From positions 1 to 19,267 of IMG/VR virus record IMGVR_UViG_2721755725_000016: a DNA stretch of 19,267 bases, one strand, 5' to 3'. Made by a program: the position numbers and the translations under genes. The notes under the pieces were generated by a model. That model worked only from the letters and a program-made list of their open reading frames with translations, did no database searches and was not told the DNA's origin. This DNA is from a virus. Taxonomy: Duplodnaviria; Heunggongvirae; Uroviricota; Caudoviricetes. This document shows positions 1 to 19,267 of the stretch, one piece after another. The stretch's first letter is position 1; each line of letters begins with the position of its first letter.

Positions 1-360
1 TTAACTGACCCGCATGTATTCACCTGATATTGCGTTGTCAGCGCCGCCAGTATCGCGCATAACAGCGCACTGACCGGGTAAACCGTAGCGCACGACCGTT
101 GCGTTAGTATCACCGCCGCGCCGTATCTGGCGCGATTCATACACTGTCACCCGCTCAAGCAGTCCACCAGCAACCATGCTTTCCAGTGTGCGCCGGGTTG
201 ATTCGAGCTGGTGACGCTTATCGAACGACACCATGCCATGAAGCAGGTAGGCCACACCCGACACATCGAACGGCGGCGCACCAATCTCACCAGTCACCCA
301 TTCGAGGTTATCCGGTTCAAAGTAGCTAAGTATCTCTTTTTTGCGACTGGTCATTCTCAT
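1..360 (-). CDS. hypothetical protein (119 aa), divergent from the HNH gene
   Basis: Complete minus-strand ORF (ATG at 358-360, stop at 1-3). No motif recognised by eye. Confidence 0.4.
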   Translation of the reverse strand: MRMTSRKKEILSYFEPDNLEWVTGEIGAPPFDVSGVAYLLHGMVSFDKRHQLESTRRTLESMVAGGLLERVTVYESRQIRRGGDTNATVVRYGLPGQCAVMRDTGGADNAISGEYMRVS

Positions 361-906
361 GGCTGGCTGATTCCTTATTGTGGGATAGCACTATCATACA
401 ATAAGTGGGTTAAAGGGAGAGCGTTACCGCCTGATATGCTGTATGAATAACAACCAAATTTCAGGTGCGGAAAAAGATATGGGGGTACTTTTGGGGGTAT
501 CTATAAAAAATGAACAATAAAAAAGGCAACAAAAACAAAGCTTATCGCCTATGTGTATTGTTCCTATTATCGCACCATTTATATCAAGCAATTACGATTA
601 AATCCTCTCTTTGTCTGCATCATGATTTTTTCCGTGTAACTCCATGTGTAAGTAATTTTCGTCAACATAAATCAACAATAGAGCATCCGTATCTCAGATT
701 GGCTCAGTCTTGTTGATTTTTTCATCTTGATGAAACAATATTTCTGATATTGATGTTGGACATTTGGGGGGGCAGCTTAGCAGGCCTGTACAGGTTGTTT
801 CATTGATTATTGCTCTATATGCCTGCCCTTTTAGATAGCCCTTTCCTGTCTACTTCCATCTATGGTGTAATCCCTTGCGAGATTAAGGTTTCTTTCGAGA
901 GATAGT

Positions 907-1566
907 ATGGAATTATTCGAAAATTATTTGTCAGCGTTACCTAAAAAAAAGCGATTGAGTAAAGTCAAGTTGATTATCCTAAAGAGATTATGGGTTTCAG
1001 ATGATTTTGATTTTCCTAAACCTTGGGTCCCATCGACAGAATTACTGGAATTGACAGGGCAAAAGTACTTCGATAGACGAACAAGAGAGTTGCGTGATGA
1101 ACTAGGCTGTGATCTCGAAAGCTCGTACATTCCGGAATTCTCGGGACATGCTTGGCGGCTGAAATCAAGCATGATTGCCCCGCCAATGGAAAGGGAATAT
1201 CTGACAGAATCACAACGATCCAGTTTATTTTCTAACTGCAGCAATACATGTGCAACATGTGGTAAAACTGTTGCCGCTGGGGTCAGGGGGCTACAAGCGG
1301 ATCACAAAATACCTTTGTCACGCGGTGGTGGAAATGAGTTAACCAATTGGCAAGCTCTTTGCCACAATTGCAACGTAGGTAAGAGAAGAGCATGTGAGGG
1401 ATGTACTGAAGATTGTTACACATGCTCATGGGCATTTCCTGAAAAATTTGGGATAACAACAATGCTCCATCTGCCAGAAGCTAGTTTAAGAAGAGCCCAA
1501 CAACTAGCTGATGCAAAGGGTTTTTCTTTAGACGAAATCGTTGACTACGCAATACGCAAGCTTTGA
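907..1566 (+). CDS. HNH endonuclease (219 aa), candidate restriction endonuclease
   Basis: C-terminal HNH/zinc motif CATCGK...ADHKIPLSRGGGNELTNWQALCHNCN, followed by CEGCTEDCYTC. Convergent with the adjacent C5-MTase, 3' ends overlap 22 bp. AT-rich. A8 tract at 943-950 (codons PKKK). Confidence 0.7.
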   Translation: MELFENYLSALPKKKRLSKVKLIILKRLWVSDDFDFPKPWVPSTELLELTGQKYFDRRTRELRDELGCDLESSYIPEFSGHAWRLKSSMIAPPMEREYLTESQRSSLFSNCSNTCATCGKTVAAGVRGLQADHKIPLSRGGGNELTNWQALCHNCNVGKRRACEGCTEDCYTCSWAFPEKFGITTMLHLPEASLRRAQQLADAKGFSLDEIVDYAIRKL

Positions 1567-2615
1567 ACATCATTCGATTCCAGTGGTGATGCCAACTGTT
1601 TTTTTTTCATTAGATCAACCGCTTCGAGTGCTTTACGAATTTGCCTTCCTGTTGCTTCGGCAACAGGAGGAGGAAAAGCGTTACCTACTTGACGATAAGC
1701 AGCTGTTTTTTTCCCAGAGAATTCCCACCAGTCCGGGAAACCTTGGATTCGTGCAGCCATTCTCACCGTCAAACGAGGCATATTTTCAAGACCTGCTCGA
1801 ATATTTCCGTCTCTTCCAATATACCCAGTAAACCCCTTTTCAGGGCTACTATCAGCTATGGAATGCCCGTTGACTCCAAGCGCTTGCCAAGCTTTTTTGG
1901 CTCTCGTCGGTCCAAGGTCTGGACCTCCATGCTTATGGGAACCGCCAACAAGTGTAGGGGCTATATTGTTAGCGGCCTTTCTCCATGCCTCGGCTCCTTC
2001 CCAGCCACCCTGTGACATTAAGTCAAAGAGAGCATCACCCACAGTCGGTGGTATCAACGTTTCACTCGGCCAACGAAAATGAGCGGAATACTTACCACGC
2101 AATGCAACTAAAAGAACTCGGGGACGAAGCTGAGGAACTCCGTAATCAGAAGCGTTATGAAGTTTCCAAAAGGTTTTATAACCCATTGCAGAGAAAGCAT
2201 GATCTAGTTCTTGTCGGTATTGTTTAAACTTTGGGTCTAATAAACCTGAAACATTTTCAATCATTACTGCTTTTGGCTTAATGATGTTCACAATTTTGAG
2301 CGCTGTTGGAAACAAATCACGTTCATCATCTTTGCCTAGTTGTTTCCCTGCTTTTGAGAATGGCGGGCAGGGCACTCCCCCTGCGACCAAGTCAATATCA
2401 GAAAAATTATATGCAGTATGTTCAGCAAAATGCTTAACGCAACCCTCTATGATATTTTCCCAACCTAAAGAATGGAGCTCATTGTTGAGGCGAAGAGTTT
2501 CGCAGGCAGCAGGATCAATCTCGACGAGCGCGCGGTGAGTGAAGCCAGCGTTATGTAACCCTAGAGCTTGACCTCCTGCCCCTGCACAAATCTCTACAGA
2601 TGTGTATTGTAACAT
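1545..2615 (-). CDS. DNA cytosine-5 methyltransferase (356 aa)
   Basis: C5-MTase motifs in canonical order: motif I EICAGAGG, motif IV GGVPCPPFSKAG, motif VI ENV, motif VIII QLRPRVLL, motif X QVGNAFPPPVAEA. A9 tract on the coding strand (plus-strand T9 at 1599-1607, codons KKK) near the 3' end. Confidence 0.85.
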   Translation of the reverse strand: MLQYTSVEICAGAGGQALGLHNAGFTHRALVEIDPAACETLRLNNELHSLGWENIIEGCVKHFAEHTAYNFSDIDLVAGGVPCPPFSKAGKQLGKDDERDLFPTALKIVNIIKPKAVMIENVSGLLDPKFKQYRQELDHAFSAMGYKTFWKLHNASDYGVPQLRPRVLLVALRGKYSAHFRWPSETLIPPTVGDALFDLMSQGGWEGAEAWRKAANNIAPTLVGGSHKHGGPDLGPTRAKKAWQALGVNGHSIADSSPEKGFTGYIGRDGNIRAGLENMPRLTVRMAARIQGFPDWWEFSGKKTAAYRQVGNAFPPPVAEATGRQIRKALEAVDLMKKKQLASPLESNDVQSLRIA

Positions 2616-3115
2616 GTCATTAAACCTGTATATAAAAACAGTTGTATGTTTATCTGATCAGAGACCATTACGCAACAAATTGTACAAAACAAGTAGTACC
2701 GTCGCTATTGAACCGGTCAGCTTAGTTACTTGATTGCTGAATGACAAGGCAATCTACAACTTTGTTTTGGAATCCTATATTTATCAAATAACTAACATTC
2801 GACAGTACTATTGGCATTCTCTTGATCAGACAGGCAGAATCTCATGTGGACTGAATAAAATGCCTTAGCTGAGTACGAAAAGAACTACTATCTGTTTACA
2901 TGATTTTTTGTCCGTAAGATGCATTGCGTCCGCTGTAAATAGCAGACGCATTCTGCAGAGAACAAATGAATAAGAAAGATTGGCACGCTGCTTGTGGAAT
3001 TCAGCTTTGGCTTCGTCGCAACATGTCGGTTGTTTGTCGTGCTCGTAAGATATCTACGGTCTGAACCGCCCCGGAAATCCTGGAGACTAAACTCCCTGAG
3101 AAAGAGGTAAACAGG

Positions 3116-3441
3116 ATGACTAAAAATACTCGTTTTTCCCCGAAGTCCGTCAGCGGGCGATTCGTATGGTTCTGGAAAGTCAGGATGAATATGACTCACA
3201 GTGGGCGGCAATTTGTTCCATTGCCCCAAAGATTGGCTGTACGCCGGAGACTCTGCGTGTCTGGGTTCGCCAGCATGAGCGGGATACCGGGGGCGGTGAT
3301 GGTGGGCTCACCAGCGCTGAACGTCAGCGTCTGAAAGAGCTGGAACGTGAAAATCGTGAACTGCGCCGCAGTAACGATATCCTTCGCCAGGCTTCCGCTT
3401 ATTTTGCGAAGGCGGAGTTCGACCGCCTCTGGAAAAAATGA
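3116..3441 (+). pseudogene. IS orfA, frameshifted (C5 tract reduced to C4)
   Basis: Copies 2 and 3 read ttttCCCCCgaag; copy 1 reads ttttCCCCgaag at about 3140-3144. The reading frame breaks after MTKNTRFSP and resumes as the 3166..3441 ORF. Confidence 0.8.
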
Positions 3442-4328
3442 TGCCACTGCTGGATAAGCTGCGTGAGCAGTACGGGGTCGGACCGGTATGCAGCGAACTG
3501 CATATTGCCCCGTCAACGTATTACCATTGTCAGCAACAGCGACATCATCCGGATAAACGCAGTGCCCGTGCGCAGCACGACGACTGGCTGAAGAGAGAGA
3601 TACAGCGCGTATACGATGAAAATCATCAGGTGTACGGTGTGCGTAAAGTCTGGCGTCAGTTGTTACGGGAAGGAATCAGGGTGGCCAGATGTACAGTGGC
3701 ACGTCTCATGGCGGTTATGGGACTTGCCGGTGTTCTCCGGGGTAAAAAGGTCCGTACGACCATCAGCCGGAAAGCCGTTGCCGCAGGCGACCGCGTAAAC
3801 CGTCAGTTCGTGGCAGAACGACCTGACCAGCTGTGGGTGGCTGATTTTACTTACGTCAGCACATGGCAGGGCTTCGTCTATGTGGCGTTTATCATTGATG
3901 TGTTTGCCGGATACATCGTGGGGTGGCGGGTCTCATCGTCTATGGAAACGACATTCGTGCTGGATGCGCTGGAGCAGGCGTTGTGGGCCCGTCGTCCGTC
4001 TGGCACCATCCATCACAGCGATAAAGGCTCTCAGTATGTGTCACTGGCCTATACGGAGCGACTAAAAGAAGCCGGATTACTGGCATCAACAGGGAGTACA
4101 GGCGACTCGTATGACAACGCGATGGCTGAGAGCATCAATGGTCTTTACAAAGCGGAGGTAATACACCGTAAGAGCTGGAAAAACCGTGCAGAAGTGGAAC
4201 TGGCCACACTAACGTGGGTGGACTGGTATAACAATCGACGATTGCTGGGAAGGCTGGGCCATACTCCTCCGGCAGAAGCAGAAAAAGCTTATTATGCTTC
4301 CATCGGAAACGATGATCTGGCAGCCTGA
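3438..4328 (+). CDS. IS3-family transposase OrfB (296 aa)
   Basis: Identical 296-aa product in all three copies. Integrase-core motifs including [10 protein letters not shown]. Confidence 0.9.
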
Positions 4329-4370
4329 GTTCACAGATAAAACACTCTCCAGGAAACCCGGGGCGGTTCA

Positions 4371-4634
4371 GACTGAAGATAATGTGATTGCTCCCGCCTG
4401 CTCAACACTCTGTGATCGATACGAATCAGTTCGTACTTATCTACTAGGAAGTTGACTGTATCGGCTAAGGGGAATCCCGTTTTCAATATGTACCTTCATA
4501 ACAGTGTCGTCAATGCGCTGCGTATCGTTAAGAGTCAGGCTGTAGTGTTTGTCCTGCAGGTATGTAACTAGGGGCTGTCAGACGGTTACAGAGGACTTCG
4601 CCACACGTTTTCGGAATATAGGTAAAATTCTCAT
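4371..4634 (-). pseudogene. CbtA/YeeV/YpjF-family toxin remnant, multiply frameshifted and 3'-truncated by IS copy 1
   Basis: Manual minus-strand translation gives MRILP..., LQDKHYSLTLNDTQRIDDTVMKVHIENGIPL and ADTVNFLVDKYELIRIDHR in three different frames, matching my recollection of the CbtA-family order. The reading frame runs straight into the IS end at 4370. Confidence 0.7.
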
Positions 4635-4781
4635 CGTCGGTTATTCTGCGAATAAAAGAAATTAATTGCGGACGGGTTTTTCGCGGTACGTCACTGTCGT
4701 ATGGCAGCCAGCGTATCTTGGTTTATGCCCTGCTCCGTATTGTTATGTCGGTCGGTATGGCATAATGCAGTCCTAGCTTTT

Positions 4782-5130
4782 TCATCGCTGGCAAATGTAC
4801 CAGTGCGAACCGAAGGGGGATTCACCGATCATCCTTTTCGCATACAGCGTGACGGTCTGCTGATGACGGGGATTCAGTTCACCGCTGGTGAACATGAGTT
4901 CCAGTTGTTTCATCAGCAGTGGAAAGGCTTGGTCCAGATGGTATGCATCCGCATCGCTGAACCGGCCTCTGATACCGGCGCGGTCTGCAAGGTAATGCAA
5001 CTGATTGCCCTCCTGCACCAGACGGGCGCCAAAACGGGGTGTCACTGTCACGAACGGTGCAGGGCAGCCCCCACCAGGGGCGGTCGTGATTGTCGTCGGG
5101 ATAATTTGTTTCATGGAGCGTGTCTGACAC
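4782..5130 (-). pseudogene. CbeA/YeeU/YfjZ-family antitoxin with internal frameshift
   Basis: N-terminus MSDTLHETNYPDDNHDRPWWGLPCTV is in one frame (start 5130); the remainder ...TVTPRFGARLVQEGNQLHYLADRAGIRG... is in the +1 frame down to the stop at 4782. The break is near 5045-5055 and looks like a roughly 10-bp imperfect duplication (gtgacagtgaca). Confidence 0.6.
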
Positions 5131-5209
5131 GATAAAATCCTCACAGAAAATCGGTTAAGAACGGTCAGGTAATGTCGATAATTCTGCTCATCAGAATGCC
5201 CTTACTGAC

Positions 5210-5431
5210 TCAGTTCAGAGTGACGCTCATCAGCCGGACATACGGGCCAAAACTGTCCTTACGGCGTTCTGCAAACACGGCCAGCACACCGGGAATATTC
5301 TGCACTTCACGACCGGTATACGCCTTAGCACTGCCGTGCCAGCGGTATTTGCCGGTACAGAACGGAAAAAGACGGGATGCAGGATGCTGTTGGTGAATAC
5401 GCATGGCTTCACCACGGGTGATGATTTTCAT
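5210..5431 (-). CDS. DUF987 family protein (YeeT/YkfH/YpjJ-like, 73 aa)
   Basis: MKIITRGEAMRIHQQHP...FPFCTGKYRWHG...VRLMSVTLN closely matches the recalled YeeT-family sequence. Sits in the conserved position between the RadC-like gene and the antitoxin. Confidence 0.8.
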   Translation of the reverse strand: MKIITRGEAMRIHQQHPASRLFPFCTGKYRWHGSAKAYTGREVQNIPGVLAVFAERRKDSFGPYVRLMSVTLN

Positions 5432-5499
5432 GGTGTGATACCTCTGAAGACAGAAGATAAAAGTGAAAACAGGTGTGATGTGGTGGTGACGGTGACGGG

Positions 5500-5976
5500 T
5501 TAAAGCAGACCATGTTCGGCAAAGGAGAAAACCTGGTTGCCACCAACTATCAGATGGTCCGGCACCCGGATATCCACCAGGCCCAGTGCCTGTACCAGAC
5601 GTTCCGTGATAAGGCGGTCTGCCTTGCTGGGTGTGACTTCACCGGACGGGTGATTGTGTGCCAGCACCACGGCTGCGGCATTGTGGTACAGGGCGCGTTT
5701 AATCACTTCCCGGGGATGGACTTCCGTGCGGTTGATGGTGCCGGTGAAGAGGGTTTCACCGGCAATCAGCTGATTCTGGTTGTTCAGATACAGCACCCGG
5801 AATTCTTCACGCTCCAGTCCCGCCATGTTCAGAATCAGCCATTCCCGTGCCGTACGGGTGGAGGTGAAGGCCACGCCGGGTTCATGAAGATGGCGGTCCA
5901 GGGTTTTCAGGGCCCGCAGAATGAGGCTGCGCTCTCTGGTTGTCATTTCTCCGGGCAGAAAGGAAAGCTGCTGCAT
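5500..5976 (-). CDS. RadC-like JAB/MPN domain protein (YeeS/YfjY/YkfG family, 158 aa)
   Basis: JAMM-type motif HNHPSGEVTPSKAD and surrounding conserved context. Confidence 0.85.
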   Translation of the reverse strand: MQQLSFLPGEMTTRERSLILRALKTLDRHLHEPGVAFTSTRTAREWLILNMAGLEREEFRVLYLNNQNQLIAGETLFTGTINRTEVHPREVIKRALYHNAAAVVLAHNHPSGEVTPSKADRLITERLVQALGLVDIRVPDHLIVGGNQVFSFAEHGLL

Positions 5977-5991
5977 TGTTCCGGCCCCCTT

Positions 5992-6477
5992 TCAGTCGAT
6001 GATGCGCATAATGGCGTTGCATTCCGGATGCTGCAGGGCGTAATCCCGCAGCCGGTAATAATGGACCGTCATGGCATAACACTCCGTACGACAGGCATGA
6101 TGGCTGTACGTCATCAGACAGGCGGCAATACCGGCGGCTTCCGGGCTCATTTCAGCGCGGTTACCGTTCATGGCATTGAACAGTACCCATGTTTCTCCAT
6201 CATCTTCATCCGGTTCTGGAGCCATAAATGCCCCGCCGTTGTTCAGGGTGTACAGATTCCAGATACCACCACAGTAGTCTTCGCAAAGACGGTCCATCCA
6301 GCCGAAGATACGGGGCTCCAGGGTCACCCACTGTGAAATGAGGCCAAAATGTTGCGGCCAGAAGCTGATGCGCTGTTCATCAGGGACGAGAGTAGCAACC
6401 AGCTGAGGTGGGTTATTCCCTGATGCAGCGGTTACGGAAACAGAAGGTGTGGTGGAATTATGCGTAACGGTTGTCAT
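5992..6477 (-). CDS. antirestriction protein, KlcA/ArdB-like (YfjX/YafX family, 161 aa)
   Basis: Sequence character of the Antirestriction family and conserved position immediately upstream of the RadC-like gene. Confidence 0.75.
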   Translation of the reverse strand: MTTVTHNSTTPSVSVTAASGNNPPQLVATLVPDEQRISFWPQHFGLISQWVTLEPRIFGWMDRLCEDYCGGIWNLYTLNNGGAFMAPEPDEDDGETWVLFNAMNGNRAEMSPEAAGIAACLMTYSHHACRTECYAMTVHYYRLRDYALQHPECNAIMRIID

Positions 6478-6567
6478 GAGATTATTCCTTATAAAAAGTA
6501 AATGAATGGAAGAATGCCCGGGGAAGGGACAGCCGTGAGTCAGGACTGCGCTTTCAGGGAAAAGGCA

Positions 6568-7386
6568 TCAGCGCATGCTCTCCAGCAGCGTTTCTGCCAT
6601 CACCCACAATGCCCGGTTGAGCTTAATGTCGGTATCGATGCTGTGAATGGCACGGGTGTGGATACGTTTTCCTTTTGCACTGCGACCGGAAAGCCCGCCT
6701 TTCAGCATATTCTCCTGGATGGTCTGATAAGCACTCCACAGGTCCTTACCGTAATCCTCCCTGCGTCGTGGTGTCAGAATGTCGGCGGTGGTGACGGGCT
6801 GATGTTCGTCACCATAACGGTAAGTCAGTGCCGCCTGTGCCAGCGCCTGGCGTGCCGGTGGCGGCAGGACCAGCGACTGCATGGCATCACGCTTCTCCTC
6901 TATCCGGTCAAACACACCCACCACCTCGTAAGCCCCTTCAATGACTCTGTCCACCACATTTCCCCGGTGCGGAACACGCACTTCCCCCAGAGACTGACCA
7001 CAGACGCAGCCGTTCTGGCAGACGAATCTGAAGTAACCCGGCAGCATCTGGTAGCTGGAGGTACCGTCATGGGAGTTGAGCAGAATAATTTCAGGGACAT
7101 GTTGTCCGTTTATCTCCCCGTCACGGCGCAGACGCAGCATGTGTTTGGTATACCCCCGGCGGCCCGGGTCACGTACGCGGGTCTGGCAGGCGAAGAATGG
7201 CTGAAAGCCTTCCCGCTGCAGGCTTTCCAGCACTGTGATGGTGGGGATGTACGAATACCGTTCACTGCGGGAGGTATGCCGGTCTTCCCCAAAAATGCTG
7301 GGAACATAGTGCATCAGTTCTTCATGGGTCAGTGGGCGGTCACGGCGTATCTGATTAATCCGTCCGAAGCGACTGGCTAATCGCAT
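6568..7386 (-). CDS. DUF932 protein (YafZ/YfjQ-like, 272 aa from the preferred start)
   Basis: Preferred start ATG at 7384-7386 is preceded by AAGGAG at 7-nt spacing. The track's longer ORF starts at 7446. Conserved position upstream of the antirestriction gene. Confidence 0.7.
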   Translation of the reverse strand: MRLASRFGRINQIRRDRPLTHEELMHYVPSIFGEDRHTSRSERYSYIPTITVLESLQREGFQPFFACQTRVRDPGRRGYTKHMLRLRRDGEINGQHVPEIILLNSHDGTSSYQMLPGYFRFVCQNGCVCGQSLGEVRVPHRGNVVDRVIEGAYEVVGVFDRIEEKRDAMQSLVLPPPARQALAQAALTYRYGDEHQPVTTADILTPRRREDYGKDLWSAYQTIQENMLKGGLSGRSAKGKRIHTRAIHSIDTDIKLNRALWVMAETLLESMR

Positions 7387-7413
7387 AATTAACTCCTTAT
7401 CTGATAATGAAAT

Positions 7414-7450
7414 AAAAGCAAAAAGGCCATGTCCCCGGAGGAACATGGCC
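7414..7450 (-). terminator. rho-independent terminator downstream of the 312-aa secreted-protein gene
   Basis: 8-bp stem GGCCATGT/ACATGGCC (7425-7432 and 7443-7450) with a 10-nt loop, followed on the minus strand by UUUUUGCUUUU (7414-7424). Confidence 0.55.
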
Positions 7451-7475
7451 TGATGGAATATATTATTGCTGATGA

Positions 7476-8414
7476 TTAATGTTGCTGATTTTTCTCTTTA
7501 ACTTTTGACCATGAGGGGCGTCGGTTGCCGGAAAATTCCTTCTGCATTGACCAGTAACCAATCGGGAACTGCTTCACCAGCACCCCGTTGATACCAATAT
7601 CGACGGACAGATACTGACCGTTGTTGATGCTGCCCTTGCGGATGTACGCATCCGCACTGCAGGTGCCGGTATCATACTGCCGCCATGTTGCGGTATCGCG
7701 GGCGGCAACATAAAAATCACCGAAAGCACAGCCCGTTGCTGACTTACGATTCAGAACGGCAACGTAATACTTAGTGTTGGCTATAATGGCGCAACTGCTG
7801 CTCTGACCGCCGCAGACCTGCCATAACGTTTTGCTGCTGTCACCCTTAAAGGTCCAGATAGTGTCTGCCGGTGCGCCGTCTGTATGTGTTACTGGCAATG
7901 CCGGAGCCTGCTGCACTGGTGTAACGTCGGGTACGTCGCGGCGTAATAGTCGTGCTTCAGCATCCCCGACATCGCCAAACATGTTTTCCTCTCCGCTGTT
8001 GTAATAAAAACCGGCAATAACATGTTCTGAGGGGATATACAGTATTTTCAGATAATGGTCACCGCAATTACCCCGCTCACAGACAGACCCCAGCAGCCAC
8101 TTCTCGTCACCAACGACCACCGGAATTAATCCACTGTCAGGGCCGTTCATGGAGCCCTGTTTTCCCGTTAACCCGGTGAGTCCTGCTGACTTCAGCGCAT
8201 CATCAAGGTCTTTCTTGAATACCGGGTCGGCATCGTAGATACTGCCCAGAAAGGGGCAGGAACCGTATCCGTTTTCATTATCACCAGCATCAGGATCACA
8301 GCGCATTGCATCTGCTGCCGTTTTTGCGACACCGGCAGCGTAAACTCCGGTGGAAATAAAACAAAGCGAGGATATCAGTATTATCTGTTTTAATTTACGT
8401 AATACAAGAAACAT
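7476..8414 (-). CDS. secreted cysteine-rich protein (312 aa), function unknown
   Basis: N-terminal signal peptide MFLVLRKLKQIILISSLCFISTGVYA. Eight Cys in the mature part, including CERGNCGDH. Own RBS and own terminator. Confidence 0.65.
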   Translation of the reverse strand: MFLVLRKLKQIILISSLCFISTGVYAAGVAKTAADAMRCDPDAGDNENGYGSCPFLGSIYDADPVFKKDLDDALKSAGLTGLTGKQGSMNGPDSGLIPVVVGDEKWLLGSVCERGNCGDHYLKILYIPSEHVIAGFYYNSGEENMFGDVGDAEARLLRRDVPDVTPVQQAPALPVTHTDGAPADTIWTFKGDSSKTLWQVCGGQSSSCAIIANTKYYVAVLNRKSATGCAFGDFYVAARDTATWRQYDTGTCSADAYIRKGSINNGQYLSVDIGINGVLVKQFPIGYWSMQKEFSGNRRPSWSKVKEKNQQH

Positions 8415-8440
8415 GATTATTTTTACTCCATCCTGTTTAT

Positions 8441-8469
8441 ATAAAAGAAACGGGCTCCGTGAAGAGCCC
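8441..8469 (-). terminator. terminator-like hairpin downstream of the 136-aa secreted-protein gene
   Basis: Stem GGGCTC/GAGCCC (8452-8457 and 8464-8469) with a 6-nt loop, followed on the minus strand by GUUUCUUUUAU. Confidence 0.45.
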
Positions 8470-8479
8470 TGTAAAAAAT

Positions 8480-8890
8480 TTAAAAGTCAATGGTATTAAG
8501 ACCAACATTCTTTTTGATGGAGGGATCGTAAATAACAACGGTAAGATGGTCTTTGTCTGAAGAACGGACAAACTTAGCGGTGGCCTCACCACTGCATGTT
8601 GCATGACGGTTATAATCCATCATTTTACCTTTGCTGGTAGCAAGATTGACAACGATGATATAAGGATCATAACAGGCCGAACCTCCCGGACTGCTCAGCA
8701 AGGCATATTTGCCATCATCAGAGACACCAATGAGGCTGCATATCCCGTCTTTTATATCCTCACTTCCGCACATCTGCTCACTTCCATCTTTCACATCAAT
8801 CACAGTACGGGGTAATTTAACCTCTGTAGCATTAACTGATGCACTCAACAACAAACCTGAAACTATTAATGACAATATAAACGCTTTCAT
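8480..8890 (-). CDS. small secreted protein (136 aa), function unknown
   Basis: Signal peptide MKAFILSLIVSGLLLSASVNA, four Cys in the mature part. AT-rich. Start lies 49 bp from the IRR end of IS copy 2. Confidence 0.6.
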   Translation of the reverse strand: MKAFILSLIVSGLLLSASVNATEVKLPRTVIDVKDGSEQMCGSEDIKDGICSLIGVSDDGKYALLSSPGGSACYDPYIIVVNLATSKGKMMDYNRHATCSGEATAKFVRSSDKDHLTVVIYDPSIKKNVGLNTIDF

Positions 8891-17028: not shown

Positions 17029-17910
17029 CTATAAATCTCTACTCATTAAATCAGATATTTTTATCAAGCTCATTTCTCTGTCTTTGTTTACATAAAGCTG
17101 AAGCAAGCGGGTGTATCTCTCGCTTATAGATTCAAGTGCAAAAGGCTTTATTGATTCCTTAATAGCCTGCGTATCTTTCGGATCATCACTAAAAACCAAG
17201 GCAGAAATCATCGGATTGCTCACTTCCTTACCTGACTTCTCACCCCAAATCAGCAGATCAACAATAGGTATCACTCTATTAGATATCAACTTCTGAAGGG
17301 TCTTTAATCCAATCCTTTTCTGAGCGACATGCTCTCTCTCTGGTACTTTTAACTCTTTTCGCCATAGAGGTAGAAGGTGAGTCAGGCTGGTAATAATTTC
17401 GTCATCAGTGGCGTCATCTAAATCTATAGAAACGAGTATGATGTTAGGGGAACAATTACTTAGGTTTCCAGTAACACTCGCAAGCATAGCGTTTGCCTTG
17501 AGGTAGCAATCCTCTTCGTCTCTTTTAAAAAAGCCTTGATCTATCGATGAGAAAGAGTACATGGCCAGCTCTGAAAATGTTACTGGACTAACCCCCATAG
17601 CTGAAGATAATGAGGGAAGATCATCGTACTCATTTCTTAATGATGGGGCTTCATCATTTACTTTGCGAATAAATTCTTCGACCTCTTCCTCTTCTTCATT
17701 GAGAATGGTTAGGTTAGGATCGCCCGAAAAAATCCTTTCATATTTTATATCGTACTCTTCTTTGAATATAGCAGTGTCATCTTTTGCATGACGCAATAAA
17801 AAATCGCGCCACTCTAATTCTTGAATCAAGTCCGGCAAGGTTAAATCATTTAAAAATTCATAATTACTAATATCAAACCATGCTAAATCTTGTTTTTTGG
17901 CTCTCACCAT
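17029..17910 (-). CDS. AT-rich orphan protein (293 aa), acidic, no recognisable domain
   Basis: Clean ORF with visibly lower GC than the flanking int and alpA. Acidic runs EEEEEVEE and DLDDATDDE. Occupies the int-alpA slot. Confidence 0.6.
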   Translation of the reverse strand: MVRAKKQDLAWFDISNYEFLNDLTLPDLIQELEWRDFLLRHAKDDTAIFKEEYDIKYERIFSGDPNLTILNEEEEEVEEFIRKVNDEAPSLRNEYDDLPSLSSAMGVSPVTFSELAMYSFSSIDQGFFKRDEEDCYLKANAMLASVTGNLSNCSPNIILVSIDLDDATDDEIITSLTHLLPLWRKELKVPEREHVAQKRIGLKTLQKLISNRVIPIVDLLIWGEKSGKEVSNPMISALVFSDDPKDTQAIKESIKPFALESISERYTRLLQLYVNKDREMSLIKISDLMSRDL

Positions 17911-18052
17911 ACGCCACCCCGCGCCCCTAATTCTGACGGCTATGCCAGCCCGTAGGGGTGTACGGGTTTTCGGGGATCAGCCTAGACATAGCCTATTCTT
18001 TGTTCGTCTACATAAGTCTACTACCATTGCTTAACACGGTCTATTCATACAG

Positions 18053-19267
18053 TTAAGCTCGTTTCCCAAACGAACCATGAACAACGTTCTCCTCCTTCTC
18101 CAGCGCATCCATATAGTCGGCATACCATTGAAGCATCTCCCGCCTTCCATCCAGATATTGCGCATGGTTGTATGTGCCACGAATTGAGTTCTTATCAACG
18201 TGAGCGAGCTGCGTTTCTATCCACGCGGTGTTATAGCCCTGCTCATGCAAAATCGTGCTCATAGTGTGCCGGAACCCATGACCAGTTACACGTCCAGCGT
18301 AGCCAATGCGCTTAAACACTTGGTTTATGCTGGCCTCACTCATTGTTTTCCTTGGATCATTGCGCCCGGGAAACATAAGAGGGTAATTGCCTGTTATTTC
18401 TCTAATCTTCCCAATAAGCGAAAGAGCCTGATCAGACAATGGCACAATATGAGGCCGCCGCATTTTCATACGTGAAGCGGGTATCTCCCAGATAGCCTTG
18501 TTGAAATCAATTTCATCCCATAATGCGCCACGTAGTTCGCCAGTCCGCAAGCCGGTGATAATCAGTAGACGAGCCGCCATAACAACCAATGCGCTTCCTG
18601 AGTAACTGGACAATGCCTTGAAAAAATCAGGTAATTCTTTAGCTGTAAGGAAAGGGTAATGATTAGATTCATGGCCTTGCATCGCGCTAGTAAGGTCTGG
18701 TGCAGGGTTATACTCTGCGCGACCAGTGACTATTGCATAGCGGAAAACTTCCCCGCACCGCTGCCTCACTTTTTTGGCTTTTTCTGTAGCACCGCGCCCC
18801 TCGATGCGCCGCAGCACATTCAGAAGTTCAAGTGGTTTGATTTCGGCGATTGGTTTTTTGCCAATGTAAGGGAACACATCTTTGTTGAAGGCTTCGAGGA
18901 TGTCTGAAGCATAACCAGCAGACCATTTTTTTAATTTGCTGCTGTGCCACTCAAGGGCAATATCTTTGAAGGTGTTGTTTAACTGCGTTTCCCGGGCAAT
19001 CTTTTCCTCTCGTTTCGCTTCCATCGGATCGATACCACCAGCGATACCTCTTTTCGCATCTTCACGTTTTGCCCGAGCATCGGCTAGAGTAACCTCAGGA
19101 TACACACCTAGTGCCAATAGCTTCTCTTTACCAGCTACACGATATTTAAGTCGCCAGTATTTACCTCCATTAGGTTTTACCAAGAGATACAAACCGCCAC
19201 CATCGGCCAGCTTGTAAGCCTTCTCTTTTGGCTTGGCTGTGTCTATTTGACGGGCATTGAGTTTCAC
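18053..19267 (-). CDS. int: P4-type tyrosine integrase (at least 404 aa; begins at the window edge, possibly 5'-partial)
   Basis: N-terminal AKPKEKAYKLADGGGLYLLVKPNGGKYWR. Catalytic HGFRHT and C-terminal GTYNHAQY (Tyr). First codon in the window is GTG at 19265-19267. Confidence 0.9.
   Translation of the reverse strand: MKLNARQIDTAKPKEKAYKLADGGGLYLLVKPNGGKYWRLKYRVAGKEKLLALGVYPEVTLADARAKREDAKRGIAGGIDPMEAKREEKIARETQLNNTFKDIALEWHSSKLKKWSAGYASDILEAFNKDVFPYIGKKPIAEIKPLELLNVLRRIEGRGATEKAKKVRQRCGEVFRYAIVTGRAEYNPAPDLTSAMQGHESNHYPFLTAKELPDFFKALSSYSGSALVVMAARLLIITGLRTGELRGALWDEIDFNKAIWEIPASRMKMRRPHIVPLSDQALSLIGKIREITGNYPLMFPGRNDPRKTMSEASINQVFKRIGYAGRVTGHGFRHTMSTILHEQGYNTAWIETQLAHVDKNSIRGTYNHAQYLDGRREMLQWYADYMDALEKEENVVHGSFGKRA

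Follow-up and report, generated by a model that had tools for sequence, protein, structure and literature searches.

A predicted Type II restriction-modification module with a LexA box upstream of its methylase gene in a genomic island of Escherichia coli O111

The IMG/VR virus record IMGVR_UViG_2721755725_000016 was analysed over positions 1 to 19,267 (this whole stretch of 19,267 nucleotides is called the window below). In a thrW-associated CP4-type island of Escherichia coli O111, which is its setting, the window carries a gene for a 219-residue HNH endonuclease on the plus strand (907-1566) that converges on a gene for a 356-residue C5-cytosine DNA methyltransferase on the minus strand (1545-2615). 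The two genes are best explained as a self-contained, horizontally mobile Type II restriction-modification (R-M) module, a reading to which we give a probability of about 0.8 from sequence comparison; the genes themselves are very probably a Type II R-M pair, and the subtype is probably IIP. An earlier note, made from the letters of the window, had described both open reading frames (ORFs) as we find them and had proposed a Type II system, with an orphan methylase beside an HNH protein that is not a restriction enzyme as the alternative. Linkage of the two genes in 91 of 96 related loci, purifying selection and the match of the nuclease to the PADLOC Type II model PDLC03478 support the proposal, and the alternative does not fit a conserved two-gene module. 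Two features absent from the earlier note are a C-terminal ribbon-helix-helix (RHH) in the nuclease and a LexA (SOS) box upstream of the methylase gene, the latter spotted in the upstream regions of enterobacterial loci. The features of the pair are as follows.

907-1566, plus strand: candidate HNH restriction endonuclease, 219 residues, WP_001444700.1 (ORF, Pfam HNH, PADLOC REase_II)
907-1191, plus strand: N-terminal winged-helix domain, residues 1-95, proposed sequence-recognition module
1204-1389, plus strand: HNH (beta-beta-alpha-Me) catalytic domain with Cys4 zinc site, residues 100-161
1393-1425, plus strand: second Cys4 cluster, C163, C166, C170 and C173, all four invariant in 49 homologues
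1453-1563, plus strand: C-terminal RHH (CopG-like), residues 183-219, proposed dimerisation and DNA-contact element
1545-1566: 22-bp overlap of the convergent 3' ends of the two genes, without an intergenic terminator
1545-2615, minus strand: C5-cytosine DNA methyltransferase, 356 residues, WP_000942525.1 (ORF, PF00145, TIGR00675)
2624-2643: LexA (SOS) box ACCTGTATATAAAAACAGTT, with its CTGT-N8-ACAG core at 2626-2641, ending 9-11 nt before the methylase ATG (2615)

Architecture and linkage of the two genes

The region of the pair is 100% identical to that in NC_013364.1 (strain 11128), where RefSeq names the two products 'HNH endonuclease' and 'DNA cytosine methyltransferase'. The canonical HNH zinc motif seen in the earlier note is borne out by a match to Pfam HNH (PF01844) over nuclease residues 115-159 (E = 3.8e-10), and the motif residues are C115-x2-C118, D132-H133, N147 and C152-x2-C155-N156. 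The protein thus has the HNH catalytic motif, the CxxC...CxxC zinc site and the beta-beta-alpha fold, and its AlphaFold2 model, built as a monomer, has a pLDDT of 89.9. In an alignment of 49 homologues with 53-92% identity and no large gaps, C115, C118, D132-H133, N147, C152, C155 and N156 are invariant, and judged by its residues the nuclease is catalytically complete. The N-terminal domain, which had been suggested to bind DNA, is a winged helix in the model and by fold comparison, and so has a DNA-binding fold; in the 49 homologues its Q52-K53-Y54-F55-D56-R57-R58-x-R60-E61-L62 stretch and W83, R84 and S87 are invariant. The second Cys4 cluster is probably a structural zinc site.

From about residue 183 the nuclease tail is poorly conserved among the 49 homologues, and the window nuclease's own tail, searched alone, gave no Pfam match. 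Pfam RHH_1 is matched by 14 of the 49 homologues (best E = 1.2e-5), and a profile of the nuclease tails matches CopG (1b01/2cpg; E = 3e-5) over the whole 45-residue repressor, as well as the RHH domains of ORF56, MazE6, NikR and HicB. The AlphaFold2 model of the tail is in agreement with this, having an extended segment followed by two helices. The PADLOC Type II restriction endonuclease model PDLC03478, which has 219 positions, is matched by the window nuclease at E = 5e-21 (about 73 bits over 160 residues) and by all 49 family members (best E = 3e-24). The aligned part extends from the recognition helix of the winged helix as far as the beginning of the RHH, with residues 50-207 aligned to positions 45-207, and this span implies that the model and the nuclease have the same architecture and length. 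The PDLC03478 cluster is, as judged from this alignment, a relative of the nuclease with the same layout and not the same family.

The methylase is predicted to be a catalytically complete C5-cytosine methyltransferase of the Dcm/HhaI class. It matches PF00145 over residues 5-327 (E = 1.1e-68) and TIGR00675 with 154.6 bits against a cut-off of 100.65. Motifs I (CAGAG, residue 10), IV (PC, 82), VI (ENV, 120), VIII (QLRPR, 162) and X (GNAF, 311) were found by regular expression; motif IX, RLTVRMAARIQGFPD, was missed by the expression, seen by eye, and lies inside the Pfam match. The set is in the canonical order with the variable region between VIII and IX, so that the earlier claim of all C5-methylase motifs holds. 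Compared with the Citrobacter and Dryocola orthologues, the ratio of nonsynonymous to synonymous substitution (dN/dS) is 0.06-0.09 for the methylase and 0.09-0.16 for the nuclease, from which both genes are judged to be under purifying selection.

We surveyed 96 related loci, comprising 16 genome loci from GTDB (one genome per species) and 80 metagenome loci, and an orthologous methylase adjoins the nuclease in 91 of them. In the genome loci the adjacent orthologue is present in 16 of 16, at 50-92% identity, with 15 pairs convergent (gaps of -22 to +48 bp) and one divergent; the 22-bp overlap, which we confirm in the window, recurs in the Citrobacter and Dryocola loci, and the gaps in the other genome loci are -4 to +48 bp. 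These genomes belong to Gammaproteobacteria, Alphaproteobacteria, Cyanobacteria and Planctomycetes, with Enterobacteriaceae, Neptuniibacter, Thiothrix, Thiolinea, Endozoicomonas, Acetobacteraceae, Qipengyuania, one cyanobacterium and one planctomycete as hosts, and one further host genome is labelled Pontibacter (Bacteroidota; locus L005). Among the metagenome loci an adjacent methylase is seen in 75 of 80 (58 convergent, 15 divergent and 2 tandem), and four of the remaining five end no more than 130 nt from the nuclease gene and are uninformative, which makes the count 91 of 92 informative loci. The earlier note had held that homologues never co-occurring with the methylase would refute its proposal; this comparison was run, and its result was the opposite. 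In an all-against-all ORF comparison the two genes alone are common to distant loci and the flanks differ, no third conserved ORF was found in the 16 genome loci, and the neighbours of the pair include integrases, PIN toxins and CP4-island genes. These comparisons indicate that the pair is inherited jointly across phyla as a two-gene unit, and separate, adjacent methylase and endonuclease genes inherited together in unrelated genomes are two features of a Type II R-M system.

That the methylase is instead an orphan standing beside an unrelated HNH protein, such as a homing enzyme or an McrA-like Type IV enzyme, is hardly credible. JGI annotation does name homologues 'McrA', EcoKMcrA is the best match in the PDB both by sequence and by the fold of the HNH domain, and there are weak PADLOC mREase_IV matches (E = 5e-4). 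The likeness is, however, confined to the HNH domain. EcoKMcrA (PDB 6ghc) is a Type IV HNH enzyme dependent on 5-methylcytosine (m5C), and its N-terminal m5C reader is absent from the window nuclease, where a winged helix takes its place; McrA has no methylase linkage, whereas the window nuclease family is methylase-linked. With the m5C-recognition domain absent and a cognate methylase present, membership of an McrA-like Type IV group was rejected. Further, an m5C-dependent nuclease beside an m5C methylase would be self-destructive, an unrelated neighbour is difficult to reconcile with one methylase orthologue being linked in all but one of the informative loci, and no homologues of the nuclease were found in the phage or plasmid collections searched.

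Loss of one partner has been asymmetric. In two Endozoicomonas loci the nuclease is cut to 152 codons (L016, 5995-6453) and 91 codons (L017, 143-418) and the methylase is intact, still with its LexA box; these methylases may be orphans in the making. Such asymmetric decay is expected if the nuclease is the dangerous partner of an R-M pair. It would also fit a non-toxic accessory gene, as would the linkage itself, and so bears on the explanation that the HNH protein is a repair or nicking partner, analogous to Vsr, for the T:G mismatches left where m5C in the methylase target is deaminated. A small endonuclease is often found in linkage with a C5 methylase, as in dcm-vsr, and SOS control of the methylase would place the module in a DNA-damage context. 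We nevertheless regard a Vsr-like role as very improbable. Vsr has another fold, and vsr genes are co-directional with dcm and overlap it; here the partner is an HNH protein, and the two genes run towards or away from each other, each with a promoter of its own, so that a Dcm-Vsr pair was rejected. All members of the nuclease family match a Type II restriction-enzyme model, and a dimerising RHH together with a sequence-reading winged helix would suit double-strand cleavage of a palindrome. We know of no mismatch-specific HNH enzyme partnered with a methylase.

As a Type II R-M pair, the two genes resemble HNH Type IIP systems in having a small separate HNH nuclease with Cys4 zinc site(s), an adjacent methylase and the form of a mobile two-gene module, and the partner of Hpy99I is a C5-methylase, as in the window pair. 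Subfamilies of HNH Type II enzymes include KpnI, Hpy99I, PacI, SphI and NlaIII (Orlowski and Bujnicki 2008, PMC2441816). Hpy99I has two Cys4 clusters, as the window nuclease does, within an architecture of a beta-barrel and two beta4-alpha2 repeats (PMC2699513). The domain order of Hpy99I and PacI is unlike the winged helix, HNH, Cys4 and RHH of the window nuclease, and this four-part order is new relative to described systems. The kind of R-M system is ordinary, since an HNH nuclease with a C5 methylase is a known combination and both genes carry generic labels in RefSeq. The top PADLOC models for the methylase are those of DruM of Druantia II (PDLC00029, PDLC00026 and PDLC00032), which it matches over nearly its full length with 428-477 bits and which outscore the generic MTase_II models. 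Druantia type II was rejected for this locus, as no large genes like druE, druF or druG are present in the window or conserved in the related loci; tools that rely on DruM alone could mis-call it.

A LexA box upstream of the methylase gene

CTGT-N8-ACAG is the operator motif of E. coli LexA (PMC8565304), and it occurs once in the whole window, immediately before the methylase gene. Compared with the known SOS box sequences in Table 4 of PMC3009722, the window box has exactly the 16-nt core of umuD and sbmC, and flanks that are also present in dinI and dinD. On a position weight matrix (PWM) derived from that table (16 E. coli sites), the window box scores 21.8 bits, against 14.1-28.3 bits for the known sites and close to dinI and recA, and the next-best position in the window scores 13.7 bits. 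A score of 16 bits or more is reached at 21 positions in 490 kb of related loci, and all but one of these (20/21) sit 9-29 nt upstream of a methylase start. The box is found in at least eight sequence contexts (the enteric loci; L026; L004, L005 and L095; L031; L033; L085; L029; L016 and L017), between which the DNA around the boxes cannot be aligned. No LexA-type site was found before the nuclease gene in the related loci. From the fit of the box we consider it likely that host LexA binds it in E. coli, and we infer that methylation would be SOS-inducible.

The box is similar to the operators of the SOS genes umuDC, sbmC, dinI, dinD and recA in being a 20-nt operator with a perfect CTGT-N8-ACAG and a PWM score within the proven range. 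It differs from those of the E. coli SOS genes in that the predicted target is the methylase of an island R-M system rather than a gene for repair, mutagenesis or a toxin. The searchable literature gave no account of a Type II methylase under LexA control, and among described systems a conserved LexA box on the methylase gene is new. The BsuMI methylase operon ydiO-ydiP is reported to belong to the LexA regulon of B. subtilis (Au et al. 2005), and it would set a precedent for C5-methylase genes of an R-M system being under LexA control. BsuMI differs in being from another phylum, with the LexA motif GAAC-N4-GTTC, a multi-gene organisation and unrelated nuclease subunits.

Two other uses of the box were rejected. 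It might have served a divergent, LexA-regulated small toxin or small RNA, but beyond the box there is no plausible divergent small ORF, no small upstream ORF is conserved, and an Rfam search returned no RNA family. It might also have been the operator of the RHH tail. Near-identical RHH strands (GVKTMVSIS) accompany either the CTGT box or a different palindrome, TTTAC-N4-GTAAA, and loci with different RHH strands have the CTGT box in common, so that the type of box does not co-vary with the RHH sequence.

Several further elements were observed upstream of the methylase in particular loci. The palindrome TTTAC-N4-GTAAA lies about 69 nt upstream of the methylase in L028, L030, L032, L035, L037, L038, L039 and L093, and L035 has a further copy 52 nt before the nuclease start; the palindrome overlaps a -35-like TTTACA, and the sites upstream of the methylase account for 8 of its 9 occurrences in all loci. 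The LexA motif of Bdellovibrio is TTAC-N3-GTAA (PMC8565304), which the palindrome resembles with a spacing one base longer. In L035 (2543-2606) and L038 (2754-2817), about 0.5 kb upstream of the methylase gene, there are three tandem 22-bp repeats, each with CTGTCTACAAAAACAG (PWM 12.4 bits). In L044 a lone GTTC-N7-GTTC, which is the LexA motif of Alphaproteobacteria, precedes the methylase start by about 68 nt; as chance would give about 0.3 such sites in the upstream regions taken together, this site alone is not significant. GAAC-N4-GTTC and the cyanobacterial LexA motif showed no enrichment upstream of the methylase in the loci.

It is unlikely that CTGT-N8-ACAG is bound by a factor which the system itself encodes, either the RHH tail acting like a controller (C) protein or the methylase, rather than by LexA. 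RHH domains are classical operator binders, R-M systems commonly regulate themselves, and TTTAC-N4-GTAAA stands in the corresponding region of the eight loci named above, in one of them before both genes. Against this, the window box fits the 20-nt E. coli LexA consensus beyond its arms, with the score and the umuD core given above, the type of box does not follow the sequence of the RHH strand, and among loci with known hosts the box is restricted to Gammaproteobacteria, with the sole exception of L005 (labelled Pontibacter).

Proposed mechanism and recognition sequence

In the mechanism that we propose, the methylase would place m5C on one short, probably palindromic, target, and the nuclease would recognise the same target mainly through its invariant N-terminal winged helix. 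A nuclease dimer would form through the C-terminal RHH, and its two HNH sites would cleave both strands of unmethylated DNA. The nuclease gene would be driven by its own LexA-independent promoter, and host LexA on the SOS box would keep the methylase at a basal level. DNA damage, including double-strand breaks that result from self-restriction and single-stranded DNA that enters during conjugation, would lead through RecA-mediated cleavage of LexA to more methylase. As the genes converge and overlap with no terminator between them, the induced methylase transcription may continue through the nuclease gene as antisense. Together these effects would alleviate restriction and form a feedback loop against autoimmunity. 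They would also permit a low steady-state level of methylase, so that m5C would cause fewer mutations and phage DNA would less often gain protection by accident. That the SOS control has such a feedback or alleviation role is a tentative suggestion. The joint reading, in which a methylase held down by LexA and induced by damage damps the nuclease in an anti-autoimmunity loop, and in which the nuclease is a new four-domain enzyme with a dimerising RHH tail, is likewise possible and less than probable.

The promoter of the nuclease gene and its leader contain the following candidate elements.

863-871, plus strand: possible extended -10 TGgTGTAAT for the nuclease gene, proposed from reading of the sequence
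871-892: hairpin-capable element in the nuclease leader, between the putative -10 and the ribosome-binding site

The extended -10 is kept in the upstream regions of the window, L002, L003 and L023. The pairing of the leader element is kept despite sequence change, being CCTT-N8-AAGG in the window and CCTTG-N6-CAAGG in Dryocola (L003, 5965-5987), and the element might be a leader structure. No convincing conserved repeat that could be an RHH operator was found upstream of the nuclease gene.

The predicted arrangement may be compared with R-M systems that have a C protein (PvuII, Esp1396I and BamHI), in which a small DNA-binding dimer times or balances the methylase against the nuclease. Here the candidate controller would be host LexA acting on the methylase gene, and the sole DNA-binding extra of the system is an RHH, not a helix-turn-helix, fused to the nuclease. 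Control by a C protein was rejected, as there is neither a third conserved ORF in the 16 genome loci nor a conserved small upstream ORF.

A number of results weigh against the R-M reading or against parts of the mechanism. The nuclease has no sequence or whole-chain fold match among solved Type II HNH enzymes, and no named, characterised restriction enzyme related to it was identified by our searches. One metagenome contig of 1504 nt (L024, OGJZ01018048.1) has an intact nuclease gene, 92% identical, and no methylase; over its positions 1030-1504 the match to the methylase gene breaks about 45 bp past the nuclease stop, at a T-run, and the contig may hold a solo nuclease or be an assembly chimera. 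In another (L063, PPCM01000010.1, 3001-4790) the nuclease homologue is 51% identical and the methylase only 26%, which may reflect a partner swap or a change of specificity. No LexA boxes were found in the Thiothrix, cyanobacterial, planctomycete or alphaproteobacterial loci, and their lack in those lineages implies that the SOS wiring is a trait of one branch, whose hosts use this LexA motif. In a sigma-70 consensus scan, the matches near the two genes did not exceed chance; the scan requires a -35 element, and the extended -10 TGgTGTAAT is thus outside its reach. Dimerisation of the nuclease through the RHH is proposed by analogy, as RHH domains generally dimerise. In the one methylome study of carrier strains (95JB1 and 95NR1), made by single-molecule real-time (SMRT) sequencing, m5C was undetectable and the methylase is unmentioned (bioRxiv 10.1101/173336). 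Finally, the recognition sequence could not be inferred from a PDB search with the target-recognition domain, from the names of homologues or from palindrome depletion.

These last three lines of evidence gave the following. The target-recognition domain of the methylase (residues 170-290) has no relative among PDB chains, the homologue lists of both proteins contain generic names only, and a literature search for the two RefSeq accessions found nothing. In a Markov-corrected analysis of palindrome depletion over 370 kb of related loci the lowest ratios were those of GCCGGC (0.35), GTGCAC, CCCGGG, GGGCCC, GGCC and CCWGG. All six words are depleted in many bacteria, and as the analysis had no control genomes lacking the system, the ranking is not decisive. 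In the methylase, conservation is 0.71 in the target-recognition region (residues 171-282) and 0.72 in the catalytic core, and the region holds the invariant block APT-VGGS-KHGG-DLGPTRA. A target-recognition domain conserved like the core, together with an invariant recognition helix in the winged helix of the nuclease, suggests that one target specificity is probably common to the whole family.

Island context, distribution and significance

The pair lies on a rearranged island, whose other features are these.

3166-4328: ORFs of IS1203 (IS3 family), which parts the pair from a RadC, antirestriction and DUF932 cluster
5992-6477, minus strand: antirestriction gene (PF03230), beside RadC and DUF932 genes
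10247-10858, 12818-13885, 17029-17910 and 18053-19267, all minus strand: genes of a second integrative element (primase-type zinc-ribbon, Ash-family, DUF6387 and tyrosine integrase proteins)

That an insertion sequence (IS) separates the pair from the antirestriction cluster had been stated in the earlier note and proved correct, the element being IS1203; in Citrobacter and Dryocola the pair directly adjoins the same module of CbtA, RadC and antirestriction genes, with no IS. The note had also called both genes AT-rich relative to the island, and this difference is real but modest, with a GC content of 42.4% for the HNH gene and 45.9% for the methylase gene against 49.8% for window positions 4401-19267, and 53.8% for the IS. 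IS1203 is present in three copies in the window (3100-4330, 8980-10195 and 14020-15233). The RadC, antirestriction and DUF932 segment (5500-8890) lies on the strand opposite to that in strain 11128, which implies an IS-mediated inversion, and the right half of the window carries genes of the second integrative element, interrupted by IS1203. At least 80% of the window is found together at a single location in only 2 of 5,426 complete E. coli genomes.

The complete pair is present in 56 of the 5,426 complete E. coli genomes (about 1%). Most carriers are O111; the others are a group of O157:H7 isolates from cattle and sporadic strains. Their identity is 99.8-100% in 54 genomes and about 91% in two. 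Two O111 genomes (NZ_CP168991.1 and NZ_CP077506.1) have kept no more than ~150 nt from the start of the 1,781-bp query (window 880-1030), which implies that the pair can be lost. In O111:NM strain 14614 (NZ_CP077460.1) there is a 1-nt length difference over the pair, a possible frameshift.

It could be argued from this distribution that the genes are an R-M pair by descent which is silent or inactive in E. coli O111, a passenger on a degenerating island. The island has been rearranged by its IS1203 copies and contains pseudogenes, the pair is reduced to a remnant in two O111 strains and differs in length by one nucleotide in strain 14614, and the 56 carriers are largely clonal, so that intactness within E. 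coli says little. We consider a silent relic quite unlikely for the following reasons. In 54 genomes, which span several lineages (O111, O157:H7 and sporadic strains), both ORFs are intact and nearly identical, and two more genomes hold the divergent variant. Selection has been purifying in comparison with the Citrobacter and Dryocola orthologues, and conservation extends to the LexA box and the extended -10.

The pair represents a widespread enzyme family of 348 protein clusters in Proteobacteria, Cyanobacteria and Planctomycetes, and in one genome labelled Pontibacter (Bacteroidota). Because the recognition module is invariant, one determination of specificity would annotate the whole family, and the family might provide a new m5C-sensitive restriction enzyme. 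The LexA box suggests a means of balancing methylase and nuclease without a C protein, and would tie Type II restriction to the SOS response; to our knowledge, the alleviation of restriction after DNA damage is well established for Type I systems but not for Type II. In O111 and some O157:H7 Shiga-toxin strains the module may shape the uptake of phages and plasmids, and it may add to their genomes an unrecognised m5C mark that SMRT methylomes have missed.

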